The notes below the pieces were generated by a model. It searched no databases, had not been told where the DNA came from, and was given only the letters and a program-made list of their open reading frames with translations. Both the position numbers and the translations under genes were made by a program. A DNA stretch of 50,377 nucleotides. It comes from an uncultured Planctomycetaceae bacterium. GTDB lineage: Bacteria > Planctomycetota > Planctomycetia > Pirellulales > UBA1268. Below are positions 203 through 9,900 of this stretch, in pieces. Where the stretch lies: contig CAIRDU010000254.1 in assembly GCA_903877395.1 (NCBI GenBank), positions 1 through 50,377 of the forward strand, given 5' to 3'. Each line of letters opens with the position of its first letter. Positions within the stretch are counted from its first letter, which is position 1.

Positions 203-1354
203 TCAAAGGACTTTCAAAGAGAATACATCAGGATGGCGATTCCCTCCCGGAATGCTTTCCGACCGGCTCCTCACGCGGAACAGATCCACAAGCAGGTCGT
301 GCGAAGGTGTTACAACGAGGTAGACAGCCAGCGACAGGATGGCTAAGTCGCGAGCAGTATGGTGAGGCGAGAGCAGCCACCAGCCACTCAGCAGGGCGAT
401 CCACGTGGGAATCAAGAGCGGCAATGCAGCCCTATGCAGTCGCAGCAGCGCGCGGCCAAGCGACGTCGGATCAGAGGTGCCAATCCGGGCCACGGGAAAT
501 GCTAGGAGTCGCATGTGTCGCCATGCGTGCCAAAAAAGAAAGTAAAATCCAATTGAAAACAAAGGGTCTGCCACAACGCCGACCAGTCCAATGATCGAGA
601 GATCAACAAGAGTATCCCACGAGCGTCGCATCGCCCCGGGCACATGCCGCGAGGCGATCGCCTCGGCAGCCAACGCACAGGCGGCCACCACCACCATCGC
701 GATCCCCACGTGACCAATGCCCGTCGGTGCAAACCACCCGGCCATATCGAGCGTTGCCGTTGTGCCCACTAGAGAGAGGAGTTCCAGCACAACTTGAGAC
801 GTGGCCAAAGGCCAACAGGCCATGGGAACGCCCAGCACACTAGCCCCTCGCGCCACCGCCGCCCGCACCTGCGGCCACACCTCAGCAGGAATCGGGGGCC
901 TTTGTCCATCGGCGTGCCCGAGGCCGAAATGCCAGACGCTCAAGGCCGTGAAGAGCACAACCAACGGTCCAGGCAGAATGATAAAGAGTGCAAGCACTGC
1001 CCCTATGGCAACCAGATACAATCCAAACACTCGCCGCGACAAAGGCCCGACGCATAATCGCTGTGCAAGCGCCAAGTCTGCTGCACCGTGAGGCAACCCC
1101 ACAACCGCCAGCGATATAATCCAGGGCAGCGGAGCCAGGAGCGTTGAAACTTGCGGCCCGCCTAGGCTCGCCGCGAGCGTTGCTAAGAGCAGGCCCGCCA
1201 ACGGAAGTCCACGAAAGATGCGATCTTCAAAGGCAGGCGGATGGATATGGCAAGCCGACATGGCTGAAAGGGACTGTTGGAAGGCATAGAAAAAAGAGAA
1301 GCCTGGGGTGGCCGAAATACTGCGACTGATAGAGCGAGGCCCGTCGCGGTGCAT
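203..1354 (-). CDS. blh: Brp/Blh-family beta-carotene 15,15'-dioxygenase (retinal synthase), polytopic membrane protein
   Basis: The 383-aa ORF is hydrophobic throughout. It shows the four-His pattern typical of Brp/Blh enzymes: GLPHGAADL, SVWHFGLGH and FLFWHAWRHMRLL. It lies directly downstream of a rhodopsin gene on the same strand. The start is uncertain: ATG at 1354, or ATG at 1261 (MSACHIH...). Confidence 0.8.
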   Translation of the reverse strand: MHRDGPRSISRSISATPGFSFFYAFQQSLSAMSACHIHPPAFEDRIFRGLPLAGLLLATLAASLGGPQVSTLLAPLPWIISLAVVGLPHGAADLALAQRLCVGPLSRRVFGLYLVAIGAVLALFIILPGPLVVLFTALSVWHFGLGHADGQRPPIPAEVWPQVRAAVARGASVLGVPMACWPLATSQVVLELLSLVGTTATLDMAGWFAPTGIGHVGIAMVVVAACALAAEAIASRHVPGAMRRSWDTLVDLSIIGLVGVVADPLFSIGFYFLFWHAWRHMRLLAFPVARIGTSDPTSLGRALLRLHRAALPLLIPTWIALLSGWWLLSPHHTARDLAILSLAVYLVVTPSHDLLVDLFRVRSRSESIPGGNRHPDVFSLKVL

Positions 1355-1409
1355 TCACAGACGCTTAGGAGACCGTGGAGCAAGTCTGCCGCCACACGCA
1401 ACGGCCACC

Positions 1410-1448
1410 GTCGACCGCTGGAAACCCTCGGCGTTTCCAGCGGTCGAC
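1410..1448 (-). terminator. Perfect 16-bp-stem, 7-nt-loop hairpin between rhodopsin and blh; intercistronic stem-loop or partial terminator
   Basis: The left arm gtcgaccgctggaaac (1410-1425) and right arm gtttccagcggtcgac (1433-1448) are exact reverse complements, with loop cctcggc between them. It sits 49 nt downstream of the rhodopsin stop codon and upstream of either blh start. No U-tract follows on the minus strand, so it is not a canonical intrinsic terminator. Confidence 0.5.
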
Positions 1449-1496
1449 CAAGTGGACAAAGGTCATGGATGATTTGATCCACAGACAGTTAGGAAG

Positions 1497-2276
1497 TTAG
1501 CCTTGGTTGTGAGACTCGTTGGAGTGGCTCATGGCTTGGATGCCATGATAGGCGACCAAACCGAAGCCCACTTTGTTGATGACGTCTGCGATATTGTAGA
1601 CGATTTCTCGGTACTCACCATTTCCGGAACGGGCCATTAAAAACCCGATCGGATAGATCGCCCAGCCAAACAGCACGAACAAACGCATCGTCTCAAGAGA
1701 CTTTGCAAGCGGGGCCGGAGCCTCGGCGATGGCATGCCCCAGCGACATGAAGAGCACTCCGACAATCATCAATTCACACACGCAGGAGACGAGGAAAAAC
1801 GTCCACCAACGCTCCGAGTTGACGGGCGATGTTTCGGCAATGAACGCGGTGACGATCATTGCCACGTCGAGGAGTACGAGTTGGAAAAAGAACTTCGTGC
1901 CCCGATCTCCCATCCGCAAGAGGAGCGGAAATTTCACGAGGAGCAGCGGCGTGGTAAACAACCAGTCGATATACCGCAGCGCCGTCGGAAACTGTCCGCC
2001 CGACTCTTGATACACGTGCGTCATCTTGAAGTAATGAAAGCAGGCAATCGCGCAGATCAGACCCGCCACCACCATCGTGCTTCGATACGCTGGTTCGACA
2101 TTGTTGCGCATCAAGAAAAAGTAGAGCGCCCCAGCCCCCATGGCCACGGTACCTGCAAAGAAAAGGTAGAGTGTGATCGACTGCAGGGGGGTGTTCTTCG
2201 TGAAGTCGGAAGACAGGGCCGTAACCCCGCCAGCAGTTACAATGGCATCAGCAGCCACAGCCAGAAGAGCATGCAT
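1497..2276 (-). CDS. Microbial (type 1) rhodopsin, proteorhodopsin/xanthorhodopsin superclade, D-T-K motif (ESR-like, predicted outward H+ pump)
   Basis: Helix C reads RYIDWLFTTPLLLVKF, giving D, T and K at BR positions 85/89/96. Helix G reads DVINKVGFGL, which carries the Schiff-base Lys and the D212 equivalent. Helix B carries a His (CFHYFKM). There are seven hydrophobic segments. The ORF track starts at 2297, which is a GTG. I prefer ATG at 2276 (MHALLAV...), which follows ctGGAGaatttt. Confidence 0.92.
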   Translation of the reverse strand: MHALLAVAADAIVTAGGVTALSSDFTKNTPLQSITLYLFFAGTVAMGAGALYFFLMRNNVEPAYRSTMVVAGLICAIACFHYFKMTHVYQESGGQFPTALRYIDWLFTTPLLLVKFPLLLRMGDRGTKFFFQLVLLDVAMIVTAFIAETSPVNSERWWTFFLVSCVCELMIVGVLFMSLGHAIAEAPAPLAKSLETMRLFVLFGWAIYPIGFLMARSGNGEYREIVYNIADVINKVGFGLVAYHGIQAMSHSNESHNQG

Positions 2277-2730
2277 AAAATTCTCCAGTTCTGTCACATT
2301 CGCCCAAAGGCGACATGACGGTTCGTGTAAGAGAGCAAAGAATCTCTAGGAATAAAAGCTGCAACAACGGTTGTTCCAGCCTACTTTCAACCGATCAGCA
2401 CGACTCAGGAACACACAGACAAGAAACAGAGCCCAAACCGGCGGATTGGCAAAAGTTGAACAGGCACAGCGAAAGTTCTCCGTGGAATCCCGGCAGCCGA
2501 TCTGCGACCACACGGGATCCAACAGACCACACTATAGAGGGGGTGCAGAACGGTTTGCAACCAGAGCCATGCGAGTCATTCCAGCCGAAGCGTTTGGAGA
2601 GCGGGGCCACTAGGGGGGTCAGTCCTTGAGGCCTCTTGGACTGCATTCTGCCAAAAACAGAGCGAATTCAGCCATTTTGGCCCTGCTTGGTGACGTGTAC
2701 AGCCACATTCGTGATGCAGTGCCCACCTCT

Positions 2731-3717
2731 TCATGCGAGTCGTGCCGTGGGTACGGGAGATACCGACGGCACAGTTGGTTGAGCGGCCTCGAAGGCCTGT
2801 CGCACAATATCCACGCCCACGCTGCTGCTCCACGCGGCGAGCAACTGTTCTGCAATCGGTCCTGGCTGGCCGAGGCCGATGGGACGGCCATCCAGGCGGG
2901 TGGCTGGCAACAGGCAACTGGGCGTGCTGGTGAGCAGGATCTCGTCGGCACTCGCCAGATCCTCCGATCGCAGCGAATGCTCCTGCCACGAAATCCCTAA
3001 CGAGGCGGAGAGTTGCTTGAGATAGCGAAGGCTGACGCCTGCAAGGGCATCGGTTGATGGAGGCGTGATAATCGTACCCCTTCGCACGATGGCGATATTA
3101 GCCGTCGAGGTTTCGCTCACCCTTCCGTCGGCGTGGCAGAGCACAGCACGGGCGGCTGGTTCGAGCGATCTCGCCATGGTGTCGGCTAGAACGTAGTGCA
3201 TGCGACTGCGGCACTTCATCTGGAGTGGCCAGCAGGTATCGGGCACCTGGCAGATCGACACGCTGCGAAGCGCAGCGCCGTTGCGATAGGCGTTGGCCCA
3301 TGTGGAAAATGCTAGCGGGAACGAGTGGATCGCCACCCGAGGTTGGCTGGCCCGCCCCTGGTGTTGTGATGGCAGATTGCCTGGAGTGGCAAATACGATC
3401 ACGCCCAAATCGTCTTGGAGGACACCGAGTGCATGATTATGACTTGCAACCGTTGCAGCCGCTGCAAAGATCGTTTCCAACGATAGCCCTGGATCGATGC
3501 CCGCACACGCCAACGAATCGCGAAAGCGGGCCGCATGCAGGTTGGCTAAAAAAACGCGGCCACCAAACGTCCTGAGCTGTTCGGTGACCGTGGCTCCCAG
3601 CACAAAGCCAGCATCCCCAACAGGGATCGAGAGATCGCCGCTGGAAATCCATGCGCCATTCAGCCACGCAATCTCTGTCGCCACCGCATATGCGTCGGCT
3701 TCATTCGAGAGGCTCAC
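2731..3717 (-). CDS. Class IV (fold type IV) PLP aminotransferase family protein; could be BCAT, D-amino-acid aminotransferase or ADC-lyase, not resolved
   Basis: 328 aa. Three motifs match the class IV pattern: MKCRSRMHYVLADTMA (Lys...Tyr motif), ETSTANIAIVRRGTIITPP and LAGVSLRYL. The subfamily cannot be assigned by eye. Confidence 0.72.
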   Translation of the reverse strand: MSLSNEADAYAVATEIAWLNGAWISSGDLSIPVGDAGFVLGATVTEQLRTFGGRVFLANLHAARFRDSLACAGIDPGLSLETIFAAAATVASHNHALGVLQDDLGVIVFATPGNLPSQHQGRASQPRVAIHSFPLAFSTWANAYRNGAALRSVSICQVPDTCWPLQMKCRSRMHYVLADTMARSLEPAARAVLCHADGRVSETSTANIAIVRRGTIITPPSTDALAGVSLRYLKQLSASLGISWQEHSLRSEDLASADEILLTSTPSCLLPATRLDGRPIGLGQPGPIAEQLLAAWSSSVGVDIVRQAFEAAQPTVPSVSPVPTARLA

Positions 3718-3813
3718 AGGGGATAGGGCTCACAGGAAAGGGCTTGTTGGAGATGCTCAAGTGGGCGTGGCCTGCGATCACCCTCAAACCGACACAACCG
3801 CGCACCAATAAAG

Positions 3814-3886
3814 TGGAGGATAGGGGATTTGAACCCCTGACCTTCTGGCTGCCAGCCAGACGCTCTCCCAATTGAGCTAATCCCCC
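3814..3886 (-). tRNA. tRNA-Ala (anticodon GGC)
   Basis: The reverse complement GGGGGATTAGCTCAATTGGGAGAGCGTCTGGCTGGCAGCCAGAAGGTCAGGGGTTCAAATCCCCTATCCTCCA folds as a 73-nt cloverleaf. It has a 7-bp acceptor stem with the G3:U70 alanine identity pair, anticodon loop CTGGCAG and T-loop TTCAAAT. CCA is not encoded. Confidence 0.93.
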
Positions 3887-4003
3887 AAAACAGATTTCCA
3901 GAAGAGATTCGGTTGAAAATACGTTGTGGGCGTGGCGGTCGTGTCGAATTGGCAACGAAAGTCGCCAATTCAGACCCCTGAAAAGTATCGCCCGCTTGCG
4001 AGA

Positions 4004-4825
4004 ATGTCAACGCGGAGCAACTCTCAAAGAAGAAAAATGCTGTTCAAAAAGGTTTTAAAAGATAGAAAGGCCCTACGGAGACGAAATTCAATGGCCACCA
4101 AAGATGCCCCAACGCAGCCCCCCCACGCACGGCCTGTCGCGTCTGCTGCATCGGCCAGAGCGCCCTCAGAGACGATGCGAGGCGTGGCCACAGCATTGAT
4201 CTGTCTGTATCTCGTCGGCCTCATGCTGTGTATCGTGGGCAACTCGGCAAGCGGATCATCGGCACTTGTGCGAACCGTCAAGTCAAAGCTTTTCTCTCCG
4301 TGGATGGTGCCGGTGTGGCTGGATCTGGGGTACGACTCCAAGCTCACCTACGGCCAACCCGAAGACGCCGATCACCTCGTGGAAGTCACTTTGGCAGAAG
4401 GCACACAGGACAAACGCGATCAGAACACGAATGACTCTGTTGGTGAGCGGATGCGATTCCCCTCGGCGAAGATGCGTGGCGAGCGTGCGGCGCGATGGCG
4501 ACGAATGGCGTGGTGGATAGCGCGTGCAGAGGAAGACCCAGACAGAGAGGGGCTCCTACCGGCTGCAATGGCCGCGGGGCTCTTCGATGACGTGGGCGGG
4601 GAGGATCTCACGATCCGCGTACTGCGACACCTACCGCTGGAACGGGCCAGCCATACCTCCGGCGATCCCTCACTCGATTCAGCCCTGTCCGATGAGCAGG
4701 CCACAGGCCGATTCGAACAGGCGTATGCGGCTAGGGTACGACGCGTGGGAGGCGAGGTGCAGCTCCTGAAGGCAGAGCCAAAGGCAGAAGTGGCTCCATT
4801 GAGAACCGCACCGGCAACGCGGTGA
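4004..4825 (+). CDS. Hypothetical membrane-anchored protein
   Basis: Part of the 299-aa ORF 3926..4825. It has one clear TM segment (GVATALICLYLVGLMLCIVG) after a basic N-terminus. The ORF start at 3926 lies only 40 nt from the tRNA, so I placed the start at ATG 4004; 4037 or 4091 are also possible. I recognise no family. Confidence 0.5.
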   Translation: MSTRSNSQRRKMLFKKVLKDRKALRRRNSMATKDAPTQPPHARPVASAASARAPSETMRGVATALICLYLVGLMLCIVGNSASGSSALVRTVKSKLFSPWMVPVWLDLGYDSKLTYGQPEDADHLVEVTLAEGTQDKRDQNTNDSVGERMRFPSAKMRGERAARWRRMAWWIARAEEDPDREGLLPAAMAAGLFDDVGGEDLTIRVLRHLPLERASHTSGDPSLDSALSDEQATGRFEQAYAARVRRVGGEVQLLKAEPKAEVAPLRTAPATR

Positions 4826-5074
4826 CCCGAGCCGTTGCGATCCCCCTCTCTCCAAAGGGCCATCGCAGGCTCCATTCCCCGTCGAAGTCGATAGCGTAAC
4901 GTTGGATCGCGGGCTTGGGGCGGGCGATGCATTCCAGCATGGCTAGGAGTTGCTCTGAATAGTTTTCAACCGGGCTGATCCGCTGCCCGTCCGACGCACC
5001 ATGCTCGACTCGGCCGCCTTCTGCCGTTCGGTAGGATCGCCGCTTCACGTGTGGCGATACAGTTGACGTTCGGC

Positions 5075-6592
5075 TTACGCTTCAGGCGCGGCCAGCTTGT
5101 GGGCCAGCAAGGAATCGAGCATCGCGCTCATGGCCGCGGTGCGAATCGGCGCCTCGATCACTTTCCTGTACTCATCCAGCGTTGCCCTCCGTGCCAGCGA
5201 TTTCTGACTAGGGCTCGTGAGCAGAATGGCGGGCAGCTTGGCCAGGAACGGGTCCTTGGATAGCGCGTTAAACGCCTCCACCGCGCCATCGCCGAGCGAC
5301 TGCGTACTCATCACCAAGCAGTCGGCAGGCGGCGGCGTTGCCGAAAAACGCAACAGCGCCCGCTGGGGGTTCTCCGTCATCAAAACGCGATAGCCTAGCT
5401 TTGTGAAAAAATGCCGCAGCGATTCTTGCGCCTTTGCGGAAGTTTCGACCACCATGAGCGTGCCTTTGGTGGCCGCACGCACGGCACTCATTGCCGAGGG
5501 CAGGGGGAATTCAGCCGACTCCCCGACTGGAACCGCCGGAACGCCACTGGCGGCCGCTCCTGAAGCGGACGTATCGTACTTGCCCATCAATGGCTCGAGT
5601 GCTCGCCGCACATCTGCCGCTGTTTGCCAGCGATCGAGTGGATCCAGACGCATCATGCGACTGATGACATCGACTACGTCTCGCGGCAGGTGCGGCGCGC
5701 AGGAGGCCAGCGGCTCAACCGATGTGAAGCGACGCGGATCCGACCGCACGGCGCGATCTCTGGATTCGGCCAATGCCGACTTGCCCGTGAGCGTGAGATA
5801 CGCCACGGTGCCCAAAAAATAAATATCACTGCGCAGGCTGTCATCTTTCATTCCAGAAATCTTCTCGATAGCTGCGTAGTCAACCGTGCGGGGATGCTCC
5901 ATCTTGCCGAGCGACTTGTCGCCGATATCGGCGTCGATGCCGGCCAAACCAAAATCGACGATTTTCGCCTGCCCGACGGAAGACACCAGCACGTTGGACG
6001 CCTTTAAATCCCGATGAGTGACACCCCGGCGATGGGCATATTCGAGCCCAGCTACCATCTGCGCGATCAGGTCGATTGCTCTCGCCAAATCGACGGCACC
6101 TCGAATCCGCACCAACTCTCGCAGCGTCTGCCCCTCCAAAAACTCCATCGTGATGTAGCTGACGTTATGTTCTTGCCCCACATCTGCAATGGCCACGATG
6201 TTTGGGTGGCGAAGCAAGCGACCCATTTCTCCTTCTCGCCGAAACGACTTGCACTTTTCCGGATCGGCGCTAAACCGATGGCGCAACACCTTCACCGCCA
6301 GGATGCTGCCGTCGGACGTGTCGATGGCACGGAAGACGCGGGCGAACGAGCCGGCACCAATCTGATAGAGCAGCTTGGCATTGCCGTAAAAGAAACCTGT
6401 TTTTTCTCCCCGCAGAAGCCGCTCGATCTGGAAGGCTGTGAGCAACTCTCGCCGCGTCAACGCATTGCTGATTTCCTCGATCGACACGTTGTGTCCGCCG
6501 AGTTCGGCCCAGACATCCTCGAACTGTGATGCCCCGACCAACCCCAGTTCTTGAGCCTGGTCCGCAAGCTCATTGGCCGTCTTTGGTTTCAT
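5075..6592 (-). CDS. Ser/Thr protein kinase with C-terminal receiver-like (pseudo-receiver) domain
   Basis: Hanks-type kinase motifs are present: GAGSFARVFRA, AVKVL, HRDLKASNVLV and DFGLAG. The C-terminal ~120 aa (TLMVVETSAKAQESL...ADCLVMSTQSLGDG...AILLTSPS) has CheY-like beta-alpha periodicity. Confidence 0.88.
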   Translation of the reverse strand: MKPKTANELADQAQELGLVGASQFEDVWAELGGHNVSIEEISNALTRRELLTAFQIERLLRGEKTGFFYGNAKLLYQIGAGSFARVFRAIDTSDGSILAVKVLRHRFSADPEKCKSFRREGEMGRLLRHPNIVAIADVGQEHNVSYITMEFLEGQTLRELVRIRGAVDLARAIDLIAQMVAGLEYAHRRGVTHRDLKASNVLVSSVGQAKIVDFGLAGIDADIGDKSLGKMEHPRTVDYAAIEKISGMKDDSLRSDIYFLGTVAYLTLTGKSALAESRDRAVRSDPRRFTSVEPLASCAPHLPRDVVDVISRMMRLDPLDRWQTAADVRRALEPLMGKYDTSASGAAASGVPAVPVGESAEFPLPSAMSAVRAATKGTLMVVETSAKAQESLRHFFTKLGYRVLMTENPQRALLRFSATPPPADCLVMSTQSLGDGAVEAFNALSKDPFLAKLPAILLTSPSQKSLARRATLDEYRKVIEAPIRTAAMSAMLDSLLAHKLAAPEA

Positions 6593-6983
6593 GCGTGGGC
6601 ACCGAAGGACAGGGGAAGCGCGGACTCATTCAGGACGGGCAAGGCCAATGCCTCGTTGAACATGGCTGATATGCCTAGTCTGACATGCCTCATTTTCTTG
6701 GCTTTATTTTCTTCGCTCGGCTGCACGGTTCAAGGCGAGCCTTGCCAGCCGCCAAAACTAGCTGTAACTCCAAGCACACCAAACGCTTAAGGCGATTGCG
6801 CCTTCGTGCGATCGGGGCTGTCTTACGCCGCCCATTCTGGGGGAACTGTGAGCATGATGATCTGGAGCCGGCGATGCAAGGGCTGCTAGAAGGATTTTAT
6901 TCGCGGCCCTTTTTGGTAGTTCGCAACCTCATGGCCCACATGAGGACTCGAAACGCAATGACGTGGGTGAGCGGATCTTTGGC

Positions 6984-9900
6984 ATGAACGAATTTCGTCT
7001 TCCTCCATTTTCGAGCCACGTTCCGCAGCTGGTACCGCCTGCCTGCCATCGGCCTGCCGCATCGCTACTGCTGTTGATTCTGTGGCGATTGTTGGCCTCG
7101 CTAGCAGCAGGCGAGGCATTGCTTGCCGCTACGGTTGAGGAGTCTTTTGAGGGCGAACAAATATCTTGGGCGGTTGCAGAGTCGGACGTACGGCCTCGAG
7201 TAGTCAGCCATGCCCGCAGTCGGGACAAGCCGCACAGGGGCATCGCTTGCGAACGGATCGTGCTGAATGTTTCTTCCGGCACAACGCTGCGACTGCAAAC
7301 TCCCATCGGAAGAACGCGAGTGATTGATGAGTGGCGGGCCTCGCTGTGGGTGCGGGCCGACCGTCCAGACATCCGGCTCTCTGTGCGAGTGATGCTGCCG
7401 AACTTTATTGCCCCAAAGACTGGCCGGCCGATTGAAGTGCTTGTACCAGGCAGCATCTCGCAGGATGCCGATCGCTGGGAACAACTCGAGGTGGGCACAA
7501 TCGCAACGGGACTCCAGCAACAGCTCTTGGCCCTCCGTGCGGAGCACGGCCCCACGGGTGATCTGACTGGTGCTCTGGCAACGCATCTGGTGCTGGAAAT
7601 CTACTCCTCTCCTGGCCACTACGATGTGGCGATTGATGATATTTTACTCAATGGCGTGGTCCAGGACGCTGTTGCTGCAACGCCCACAAGGGGACGCGAG
7701 ACGGCCACCGGAATACGAGACCCAAACGTGCGTCCGGTGCAACTCACGGTTTCGGCCAACGCAGAGCCCACGGTAACGCCTGCGGCAACGCCCCCCGTGG
7801 AATCTCTGGCTGACCCATCCACTGGCCTAGCACGCGGTGTACTCGAGGTCGGTGGGCTTCCTTTTTTTCCCCGCGCTCTGGATCACAGTGGAGAACCGCT
7901 GGAAGCAATCGCAGCGATGGGCTTCAATTGCGTGCGTCTGGCCACTCCCGCTTCGGGTGAATTGCTGGCCGAAGCCCGCCGCGCAGGAATCTGGATTATC
8001 TGCCCGCCCCCACAACTTCCAGACGTAGACATACGCGATCCTGAATCGCTGCCCGTTTTCTCGGCCAACTGGGATCGCGTGCTGCTGTGGGACATGGGCA
8101 GCGGGTTGTCGGAAGCGGACGTCGAATCGCTGGCCGAACGGGCCAGACGCGTGCGGGCCTGCGACATGCGCGGCGGCCGAGCGATCATCGCCTCAGCTGA
8201 CTCTGGCCTGCGTTCAATCTCACGGCACGTTGATCTGCTCGTCGCACGACGAACCGTGCTGGGCACGAGCGTGGAATTAGCCGACTATCTGACGTGGTTG
8301 CGAGACCGGCCCCGGCTTATGCGGCCGGGCACGCCACTCTTAGCCACGCTCTCCACAGAACTCGACCCGCGAACGGCACAGCAAGCCGCCAGCCTGTCGG
8401 GCATCGGTGGACGCGGCCTGGCGGTCGATCCCGAAAGTCTTTCTCTAGCCGCCATGACCGCAGTGGCTGCCGGCACACGAGGCATTCTCTTTGCATCGTC
8501 GCGTCGCATCGACAGCGACGATCATGAATCGCGGGCACGAGGGTCGGCGGCCTTGGCAATGAACCTCAAGCTCAAACTCCTCGAACCGTGGGCAGCCGCC
8601 GGTCGATTCGCCGCTTCGGCACAATCCAGCGATCCGGAGGTGAAGGCCGTGGTGCTGGAGGCAGCCCGCGCACGCATGGTGGTGGCGTGGCGGTGCGTGC
8701 AAGGCTCGCAGATTGTGGCCCGCCACTACCACGGTGATATTCCAAAGGAGAGTTCGCCGCTGACTCTTCTTGTGCCTGGCGTACCCGAGGCACATCAGGC
8801 GTGGGAAGTGGGGCCTGGTGGCTTGCGGCCACTGCGACAAAAAAGGGTCACAGGCGGCGTGTCGATCGTACTGGATCCGTTCCGTTCTTCGAGCCTTGTG
8901 CTCTTGAGTGGCGATCCATCTGTGACAGCGCATGTGCAGCAGCGGGTGCGGGAACTCTCGCCGATCGCGTTGGCATCGGCCCGCGCTCAGGCGGCGATCG
9001 TGCTGGCAGATGGGGCGGAACTGTTATTAAAACTCCCCCCTGCTGCGCTGGGCAATCTGCCTGCTGCTGCGATGCTCAGCGAAGCTCAGCGGAGTGCTTT
9101 GGCCGCAGAGCAAATCGCCGCAAGCGATCCGGCCACTGCTATTGCTGGGCTGGAGCGTGCCGCTGCCATCGGAGGCCAACTCGAACGCCTGACGTGGGAA
9201 CGCGGCGTTCTGGCCACAGGCTCGATGGTGGCAGGACCACTCTCCACTTCGGACGCATCGCTGGCCGAACACTGGCGGTTTGTTGAAGCGATTGCCTCTA
9301 CAGTGCCTCAGGAAGAATTGCTGCTTGGCGGTGAGATGGAACGCATCGAGGAATTGTCGGGGAACGGCTGGCGCCACTTCGCGATGAACGAACCGACGAT
9401 CCGCACCGCCGTCGAAATCTCCCGCACGCACCCCGCAGGGGGCAAAGGGAGCCTTTTAATGAGGGCCAAGACAGCCAACCCGGCGGAATCTCCGGGCACA
9501 GTCGAAACGCCGCCGGTGTGGATCACCACTCCCCCCATCTCGCCGCCCAGCGGCAAACTTCTCCAGATCGAGGCACGCGTGTGGGTGCCGCAGCCCATCA
9601 AGGGGAGCGTGGACGGCCTACTTGTCTTTGATTCCATCGGCGGAGCGGCGCTGGCCGAACGAGTGGGTGTGACTGCTGGCTGGCGAAGGCTTGTGCTCTA
9701 TCGCATCGTGCCAGCCGATGCTTCCAGCGAACCACTTGTCGTAACGTTTGCACTCACTGGGCTGGGCGAAGCTCACATTGACAACGTCTCGATCCGCGTC
9801 CTGGAAAGTAGCGGGCAAAGCGAAGCCGGCGTGCCAAGCACAATCGTTTCGACAACTCCCAGACCAAGTTCTGCGACTGCGTTTCCGAACCCCAGCGAAG

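Follow-up and report, generated by a model that had tools for sequence, protein, structure and literature searches.

The closest characterised relatives of the rhodopsin studied here are Exiguobacterium sibiricum rhodopsin (ESR) and E17R, which are outward proton pumps with an Asp-Thr-Lys (DTK) triad. Related proteins are known from Planctomycetes: the relevant passages of He et al. (bioRxiv 10.1101/2022.08.01.502354) report that freshwater Planctomycetes of the ESR branch carry DTK, those of Cabello-Yeves et al. (PMC5673642) place a 'Planctomycetes-Verrucomicrobia' rhodopsin branch next to Exiguobacterium, and those of Andrei et al. (PMC6461901) present five green-light rhodopsins of lake Planctomycetes. 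The usual partner enzyme of such a pump belongs to the Brp/Blh family of carotenoid 15,15'-dioxygenases, which normally split beta-carotene to retinal, and for one member, the Blh of the uncultured marine bacterium 66A03, a plane formed by His21, His78, His188 and His256 has been proposed. Planctopirus limnophila makes 4,4'-diapolycopene by way of HpnCDE and CrtN, and C40 carotenoids are absent from it (PMC9907078). The same paper reports CrtN, but no CrtP, for Marine Group II archaea. Here we describe a rhodopsin gene and the blh gene next to it, found at one end of a 50,377-nt stretch of DNA (the window) from an uncultured Planctomycetaceae bacterium of a lake. The window is the entire contig C254 (CAIRDU010000254.1) of a 3.2-Mb metagenome-assembled genome (MAG), which consists of 560 contigs and is 81% complete.

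Taken alone, the gene pair is ordinary, a published kind of pump with its usual partner enzyme. What is new is an association of four features in the clade to which the window protein belongs and which we call the PVC clade (for Planctomycetota-Verrucomicrobiota): the hosts lack C40 genes, their Blh enzymes form a separate lineage, the ring pocket of the opsin is remodelled, and occasionally a crtN gene has been recruited to the locus. This four-way association was not found in the literature searched, the pocket residues not having been searched for specifically, and the relevant passages of the three rhodopsin papers cited above mention neither the missing C40 pathway and the separate Blh subfamily nor the pocket changes and the crtN linkage. 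As a whole, the locus is very probably a PVC photosystem module, in which a DTK outward proton pump is combined with a Blh-family partner enzyme. Judged from the sequences, the identity of both genes is near certain, and the two-gene module is old and vertically inherited in PVC bacteria.

The rhodopsin open reading frame (ORF) occupies positions 1497-2297 on the minus strand (PF01036, E 2.6e-45) and is opened by a GTG at 2297. The probable start is the ATG at 2276, giving a protein of 259 amino acids (coding sequence 1497-2276, minus strand), because the orthologue at locus L013 has 259 amino acids and a GGAG sequence lies 8 nt upstream. The closest solved structure is that of ESR (PDB 4HYJ, E 1e-51), and green proteorhodopsin (GPR) matches with an E value of 1e-33 (HMMER). 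The search returned 764 rhodopsin homologues, the best of them 93% identical, with hundreds of relatives in Planctomycetota MAGs. A 94%-identical copy (locus L023) is from a Lake Zurich planctomycete MAG (isolate ZH-3NOV15-plancto3), and Stratiformator vulcanicus is a cultured species with a homologous rhodopsin (66% identity).

The protein has the seven-helix domain, the helix-G lysine, the D-T-K triad and the helix-B histidine of a DTK (ESR-like) rhodopsin. Helix C, RYIDWLFTTPLLLVKF (1929-1976, minus strand; codons checked), pairs without gaps with RYIDWLVTTPLLLVKF of ESR and RYIDWLLTVPLLICEF of GPR in the HMMER alignments, and contains the acceptor D111, T115, the green-tuning residue L119 and, at the donor position, K122. 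In an equally gap-free alignment to bacteriorhodopsin (BR), whose sequence was verified against the PDB, D111, T115 and K122 correspond to D85, T89 and D96. L119 sits at position 105 of proteorhodopsin (PR) and at L93 of BR, which predicts green absorption. His88 of helix B (CFHY; 2034-2036, minus strand) aligns with GPR H75 and with the helix-B His of ESR; in PR, xanthorhodopsin (XR) and ESR this histidine is the partner of the counter-ion Asp. The DVINK motif (1572-1586, minus strand) holds D238, equivalent to BR D212, and the Schiff-base lysine K242, equivalent to BR K216. Conservation of these residues was counted in 120 PVC-clade proteins and 120 proteins of the ESR side: the DVINK Asp and the Schiff-base Lys were invariant in all 240 sequences, and the helix-B His was kept in 115 of the 120 PVC-clade members. 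A first-pass annotation of this DNA, made from the sequence alone, had placed Asp, Thr and Lys at BR positions 85, 89 and 96, the Schiff-base Lys in DVINK, a His in helix B and a Leu at the spectral-tuning position PR-105, and the alignments agree with it on every one of these residues.

In analogy to ESR, the protein, a member of the DTK (ESR-like) superclade, would use light to pump protons outward, both pumping and its direction being predicted from the residues just listed. D111, paired with H88, would take the Schiff-base proton, and K122, which stands at the site of the carboxylic donor of BR and PR, would assist, as in ESR, in returning a proton to the Schiff base at K242. The Blh-family iron dioxygenase, for its part, would cleave its presumed carotenoid substrate centrally to yield a polyene aldehyde as chromophore.

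In the maximum-likelihood tree the window protein grouped with proteins of Planctomycetota and Verrucomicrobiota (100/99). The sister of this PVC clade (99/96) includes ESR, further Bacillales, Acidobacteriota and other groups, and the two together are split from GPR and XR (98/93). The phylogeny proposed as a check in the first-pass annotation therefore puts the window protein with the ESR superclade, apart from GPR and XR. The label 'ESR-type' given there is right at the level of the DTK superclade, but it does not hold below that level: the protein falls outside the ESR subclade, in the PVC sister clade, and its pocket differs at Ala151, Glu175 and Phe219. DTK is the usual state in the PVC clade and on the ESR side, with DTT, DTQ, DTM, DTI and DTV found occasionally. 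In three proteins, P0111, P0120 and P0069, the donor Lys is replaced, giving either DTQ or a DTT that goes with Asn in place of the helix-B His; judging from their sequences, clade members with DTT or DTQ may be functionally shifted variants.

The blh gene (203-1261, minus strand; 352 amino acids) encodes a Brp/Blh-family carotenoid 15,15'-dioxygenase of the PVC 'blh-only' subfamily. Its matches exceed the curated cut-offs, with 115.8 bits vs. 28 for PF15461 (E 3.6e-33) and 120.8 bits vs. 95.25 for TIGR03753. The open frame itself spans 383 amino acids; the start was assigned to the ATG at 1261 because the 94%-identical locus L023 has a stop in the upstream part of the frame. Numbered in the 383-residue frame, H89 (1088-1090), H142 (929-931), H276 (527-529) and H352 (299-301; all minus strand) correspond to the histidine plane proposed for 66A03 Blh and are kept in 65-66 of the 66 Blh relatives scored, whereas the second His of the HxxxH motif (H280, equivalent to H192 of 66A03) is kept in 29 only. 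The Brp/Blh gene with four histidines that had been noticed downstream of the rhodopsin is thus confirmed by two family models and by four near-invariant histidines. Blh is much more variable than the opsin, with 35-60% identity where the opsin holds 75-89%, and the PVC-type enzymes share subfamily-specific indels: their N-terminus is longer, and 11 extra residues follow the third His helix.

The arrangement of the two genes is strongly conserved. Among 64 related loci with enough flanking sequence, in Planctomycetota and Verrucomicrobiota, the rhodopsin gene is directly followed by blh in 62, and the order class IV aminotransferase - opsin - blh - DedA/VTT - glnE persists while opsin identity falls from 94% to 73%, a synteny which argues for vertical descent of the rhodopsin. 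The spacer between the two genes (1262-1496, 235 nt) exceeds that of the 94%-identical L023 by about 96 nt; no terminator-like site and no RNA family match was found in it, and the genes are probably co-transcribed. Relative to the nearest relatives, the ratio of nonsynonymous to synonymous substitution rates (dN/dS) was 0.10 in the opsin gene and 0.27 in blh (dS 0.30); purifying selection acts on both genes and is strong in the opsin. A foreign origin of the rhodopsin, as might be read from its low GC content (0.543), was considered and is not supported: its GC content at third codon positions (0.689) is high and synteny is conserved. Since this value exceeds that of blh (0.626), the low overall GC reflects amino-acid composition.

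These data bear on the question whether the protein is an outward proton pump at all, or rather a sensor, an inward pump, a pump for another ion, or part of a decaying module. Some observations weigh against the pump-and-partner account: a few PVC-clade members have Thr or Gln in place of the donor Lys, or have lost the helix-B His, the clade-specific Glu175 and Ala151 have not been studied, and blh is lost at two loci, L040 (1301-2783) and L044 (183-1703), where DedA/VTT directly follows the rhodopsin gene, so the opsin-blh pair is not obligatory. Set against this are the conservation of the D/T acceptor pair, H88, D238 and K242, the low dN/dS of the opsin, the function of ESR and E17R as the nearest characterised relatives, and the lack of an adjoining transducer gene. 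We consider these other functions very improbable.

The outward pump with a Blh partner being the preferred account, the question is which carotenoid the enzyme cleaves. The genomes compared comprised 57 of the window's own GTDB family and, with duplicates removed, 22 more that belong to Verrucomicrobiota or to Planctomycetota families other than this one. After merging of duplicate handles, 52 genomes, mostly MAGs, carry a PVC-clade rhodopsin, among them the closed genome of Stratiformator vulcanicus (G403) and a genome in five contigs (G162). The search for lycopene cyclases used PF05834 in all 52 carriers; PF18916 was run on 27 genomes of the family, on the own genome and on those that are closed or nearly so. 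The score of about 630 bits obtained by the CrtI of classical cassettes served as the yardstick for a true CrtI.

In the window's own genome, as far as it is covered (81%), neither PF05834 nor PF18916 had a match, so no lycopene cyclase of either type was found. The carotenoid genes that are present lie on two other contigs. Contig C141 carries hpnC and hpnD in tandem, followed by the start of hpnE, and contig C116 carries CrtN-like and CrtP-like desaturases of the CrtI family together with a family 2 glycosyltransferase (GT2) gene; by its sequence this gene layout identifies itself as a squalene-route C30 pathway. The idea that one of the two SQS_PSY genes is CrtB was rejected, since their scores identify them as HpnC (305.9 bits) and HpnD (235.9 bits), and they stand in tandem and are followed by HpnE. 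On C141 (2-1240, minus strand; L002) the HpnD domain and the HpnE N-terminus are in one frame that runs off the contig, which could be a fusion or a read-through short overlap. On C116 (L015, 5981-6979, minus strand) the CrtP-like desaturase gene is separated from GT2 by a 332-amino-acid ORF that matches nothing in Pfam or NCBIfam; this ORF may encode the acyltransferase (CrtO) of the C30 pathway.

The same gap was found in the other carriers. No lycopene cyclase (PF05834) was detected in any of the 52, closed S. vulcanicus included, and neither crtB, which would appear as a third SQS_PSY gene, nor a true crtI was present in the carriers tested. S. vulcanicus has blh, the HpnC/HpnD tandem only and no cyclase, a Verrucomicrobiales MAG was likewise cyclase-negative, and no cyclase was found in the 22 further genomes; in these 22 and in S. 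vulcanicus no CrtI-family score rose above about 550 bits, compared with about 630 for the cassette CrtI. A complete pathway from farnesyl or geranylgeranyl diphosphate (GGPP) to retinal was not found in the own genome, nor in G403 and G162. In the first-pass annotation the pair had been called a self-sufficient module provided that beta-carotene is available. This is not borne out, as the classical route is absent and the genome-wide search for crtB, crtI, crtY or another lycopene cyclase, which had been recommended, turned up none; the doubt expressed there about the source of beta-carotene was well placed, the own genome and the carriers having a C30 route only. Without C40 genes, Blh is left without recognisable endogenous beta-carotene. 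We commit ourselves to this negative statement: the substrate of Blh is not beta-carotene made by the cell via any recognisable pathway.

An assembly gap as the cause of the missing crt genes was examined and rejected. The blh gene ends 200 nt from the contig end, and the locus resumes on contig C393 of the same genome with DedA/VTT and glnE and without crt genes, the same downstream genes that are seen in relatives. An assembly artefact is unlikely also because none of the 52 carriers, including one closed and one five-contig genome, was positive.

Comparison within the family sharpens the picture. Of its 57 genomes, 26 are of the PVC type, with a DTK opsin and blh and with no full PF05834 match, third SQS_PSY gene or 630-bit CrtI; 22 contain a different rhodopsin, a xanthorhodopsin according to its PDB match with psXR (E 5e-71), in a one-contig cassette XR-blh-crtY-crtE-crtI-crtB; and nine have no rhodopsin match and no blh. 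Both rhodopsin types occur within single genera, and among the rhodopsin matches no sampled genome had both. The HpnC/HpnD pair and the CrtN-like/CrtP-like pair are common to all family genomes with enough assembly. A cassette of this kind (L103, G245:C6:11000-23500) reads xanthorhodopsin-blh-crtY-crtE-crtI-crtB on the minus strand at 3305-9785; its XR carries the triad DTE and, as in antenna-binding types, has Gly at the BR W138 position.

It is conceivable that the PVC-type bacteria make true retinal by a hidden endogenous route using unrecognised enzymes, for example a GGPP-accepting synthase and a cyclase of a new type. A bacterium without known retinal genes is reported still to make a functional rhodopsin (PMC7734400), the carotenoid clusters hold unannotated ORFs such as the 332-residue one of L015 (5981-6979), and CruA/CruP-type cyclases were not specifically searched for. 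On the other hand, PF05834 and PF18916 were negative wherever they were run, P. limnophila was found to contain no C40 carotenoids (PMC9907078), and the XR-type siblings import crtE, crtB, crtI and crtY together, which suggests that the shared background supplies none of them. We regard a hidden route as improbable.

To our knowledge, the squalene-route C30 pathway has never been linked to a rhodopsin. Such a link is seen in six related Planctomycetaceae genomes (G405-G410), in which opsin, blh and crtN form a tightly packed, single-strand operon. Their main cluster (Sqs-like, CrtN, AldH, CrtP) encodes a second CrtN, and the operon-linked copies form a clade of their own (99/100), separate from the main-cluster CrtN of the same genomes (100/100). 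In another genome, G414, blh is likewise followed by an additional crtN, and 2 kb upstream there is an Sqs-like gene. The opsin-blh-crtN loci are L085 (766-4237), L086 (10001-13962), L088, L090, L091 and L096 (9905-14904), all in genomes with a main CrtN/AldH/CrtP cluster besides; L096 also has a 632-amino-acid ORF with an Sqs-like domain at 6230-8128 on the minus strand. The operon-linked gene of the CrtI family is unlikely to be a phytoene desaturase, because it is 58-63% identical to CrtN-like proteins and only about 32% to the cassette CrtI, and a ketolase for an antenna carotenoid is unlikely because the opsin has an aromatic residue, not Gly, at the BR W138 position.

It is therefore possible, and we hold this reading tentatively as falling somewhat short of probable, that the substrate is the cell's own C30 carotenoid: the PVC-type Blh would cut 4,4'-diapolycopene or an oxidised derivative of it at the 15,15' bond, and the C15 aldehyde formed, an acyclic analogue of retinal, would bind to K242. 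From 4,4'-diapolycopene itself a cut at the centre would yield 3,7,11-trimethyldodeca-2,4,6,8,10-pentaenal, a compound which should have the same five C=C bonds, C=O group and methyl pattern as retinal and lack C1-C3, C16 and C17. Bacterio-opsin combined with acyclic retinals is said still to pump protons, a result attributed to Crouch et al. in JACS 1984. In favour of a C30 substrate are the lack of lycopene cyclase in 52 of 52 carriers with a C30 route only in those tested, the presence of 4,4'-diapolycopene and absence of C40 carotenoids in P. limnophila (PMC9907078), the dedicated CrtN paralogue in the operons of G405-G410, and the extra crtN of G414.

Two more lines of evidence come from the enzyme and the opsin. 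In the Blh tree all CrtY-associated enzymes are on one side (99/99) and the 'blh-only' PVC enzymes on the other (99/99). The CrtY side includes the enzymes linked to xanthorhodopsins as well as those from DTK operons of Acidobacteriota and of L117, and therefore Blh divides by carotenoid context, not by opsin clade; this split by presence or absence of CrtY, with the subfamily indels, counts in favour of the C30 reading. The L117 locus (3548-9864) has crtI-crtB-crtY-blh downstream of a tandem pair of rhodopsin genes, of which one is DTK and has Met in place of the helix-B His.

In the opsin, the ring end of the pocket is remodelled in exactly the PVC clade, and the ring pocket of the ESR/PR type, with Gly at BR position 122 and Trp at 145, is not present in the window protein. 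Ala151 (BR G122; 1845-1847, minus strand) is Ala in 120 of 120 PVC-clade proteins and Gly in 120 of 120 on the ESR side and in GPR and XR. Glu175 (BR M145, ring end of helix E; 1773-1775, minus strand) is Glu in all 120 PVC-clade proteins and Trp in all 120 of the ESR side, with Trp in GPR and Phe in XR. Phe219 (BR W189) is Phe in all 120, compared with 102 Tyr and 18 Phe on the ESR side and Tyr in GPR and XR. The C17 methyl of the ring sits in the Gly122 cavity in both BR and C1C2 (PMC4479019). Helix periodicity and the mapping onto BR suggest that Glu175 faces the pocket, where it would contact the ring. In the alignment the BR W138 position of the window clade is an aromatic residue, not the Gly of antenna-binding xanthorhodopsins. 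One may speculate that the DTK rhodopsins of the PVC clade use a C15 acyclic aldehyde in place of retinal and that Ala151, Glu175 and Phe219 are an adaptation to it, a proposal we put forward as a possible one and no more strongly.

Alternatively, the cells may scavenge their carotenoid: algae, cyanobacteria or detritus would supply a C40 compound, for example beta-carotene or zeaxanthin, and Blh would convert it to retinal or 3-hydroxyretinal. Purifying selection keeps blh without any crt genes, dependence on an exogenous chromophore is documented for other rhodopsin bearers, the opsin pocket is PR-like elsewhere, and ESR binds retinal; a hydroxyl on the ring could find its partner in Glu175, which is invariant and would lie nearby, and the XR-type siblings may retain crtEBIY for an antenna carotenoid, as their XR has Gly at the BR W138 position. 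Scavenging leaves unexplained, however, the crtN paralogue in the operon and the division of Blh by absence of CrtY; no precedent was found for a stable, family-wide 'blh only' reliance on foreign carotenoids, and there is no documented case of small planktonic cells taking up carotenoids, which are very hydrophobic. We regard scavenging as a possible explanation, one that we would not call probable.

Several points weigh against cleavage of an own C30 carotenoid. We know of no rhodopsin with a C15 acyclic chromophore. 66A03 Blh leaves lycopene uncut and requires at least one beta-ring (bioRxiv 10.64898/2026.08.06.743266), and ESR and E17R form normal retinal pigments (PMC4871484). The DTK opsins of Acidobacteriota and L117 stand in classical crtI-crtB-crtY-blh operons, therefore DTK as such goes with ordinary retinal, and for the same reason we rejected the idea that the whole ESR superclade is tied to C30 hosts. 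The change from Trp to Glu loses bulk, so the space of the ring is not filled, and Glu175 fits a polar end, for example the hydroxylated ring of scavenged zeaxanthin, at least equally well. The crtN linkage is limited to two lineages, the window's family not being among them. Bacillales hosts (Marinococcus, Jeotgalibacillus) have the C30 pathway yet no blh, and Gly at the BR W138 position (antenna type) of the XR siblings could alone explain why these kept crtEBIY. It must also be noted that the carriers are mostly MAGs and that the cyclase negatives rest on PF05834 and PF18916, a dedicated search with CruA/CruP-type models not having been made.

Whatever the substrate, PVC-clade rhodopsins are abundant in lake and marine PVC bacteria, which keep blh under selection and make no C40 carotenoids. 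If the C30 source is true, no natural microbial rhodopsin before this one would have had a chromophore of non-retinoid length, C30 carotenoids would have a new biological role, the retinal-only rule for microbial rhodopsins would gain an exception, environmental retinal used as a proxy of rhodopsin phototrophy would overlook these organisms, and crtN, blh and opsin would offer a compact route from squalene or dehydrosqualene for engineering. If scavenging is true, planktonic Planctomycetes would have a new nutritional dependency. The question of the chromophore is directly testable because the cultured S. vulcanicus, with its closed genome, carries the module.

Outside the module, the class IV aminotransferase gene (2731-3717, minus strand) is the upstream synteny anchor; its L013 orthologue has PF01063, and an aminotransferase gene adjoins the rhodopsin gene in most related loci. 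A tRNA-Ala(GGC) gene (3813-3886, minus strand) lies between it and a 299-amino-acid ORF without family assignment.

Compared with the known systems, the window rhodopsin shares with ESR and E17R the D-T-K triad, a helix C identical in 15 of 16 positions, the helix-B His, the tuning Leu, the DxxNK motif and the superclade, but it belongs to the sister clade and differs by Ala instead of Gly at BR-122, Glu instead of Trp at BR-145 and Phe instead of Tyr at BR-189. It is of the same family as the published DTK opsins of freshwater Planctomycetes. The pairing also differs, as blh is nearly always beside a PVC-clade opsin (62 of 64 loci) whereas blh is entirely lacking in the Bacillales hosts examined. 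At the Exiguobacterium, Marinococcus luteus and Jeotgalibacillus aurantiacus loci (L105, L106 and L107) no blh adjoins the ESR-type gene and a small ORF of 53-70 amino acids lies immediately downstream of the rhodopsin; the two Bacillales genomes searched had no blh anywhere and only a CrtM/CrtN-type C30 pathway.

The window Blh resembles 66A03 Blh and Halobacterium Brp in its Pfam and TIGRFAM families, its matching histidine plane and the position of its gene beside a rhodopsin; it differs from them in that its clade is apart from every sampled CrtY-associated Blh and its host has no beta-carotene pathway. With the classical cassette represented by L103 the module has in common the opsin-blh unit and the occurrence in the same family and even the same genera, but the XR cassette has crtY, crtE, crtI and crtB beside blh and a DTE opsin, whereas the window module has blh alone. 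The C30 pathway of P. limnophila (HpnCDE, CrtN, CrtP, AldH, CrtQ, CrtO; PMC9907078) is matched in the own genome by hpnC-hpnD(-hpnE), the CrtN-like and CrtP-like desaturases and GT2; the difference is that in two lineages of the PVC-type carriers an extra crtN has entered the opsin-blh operon.

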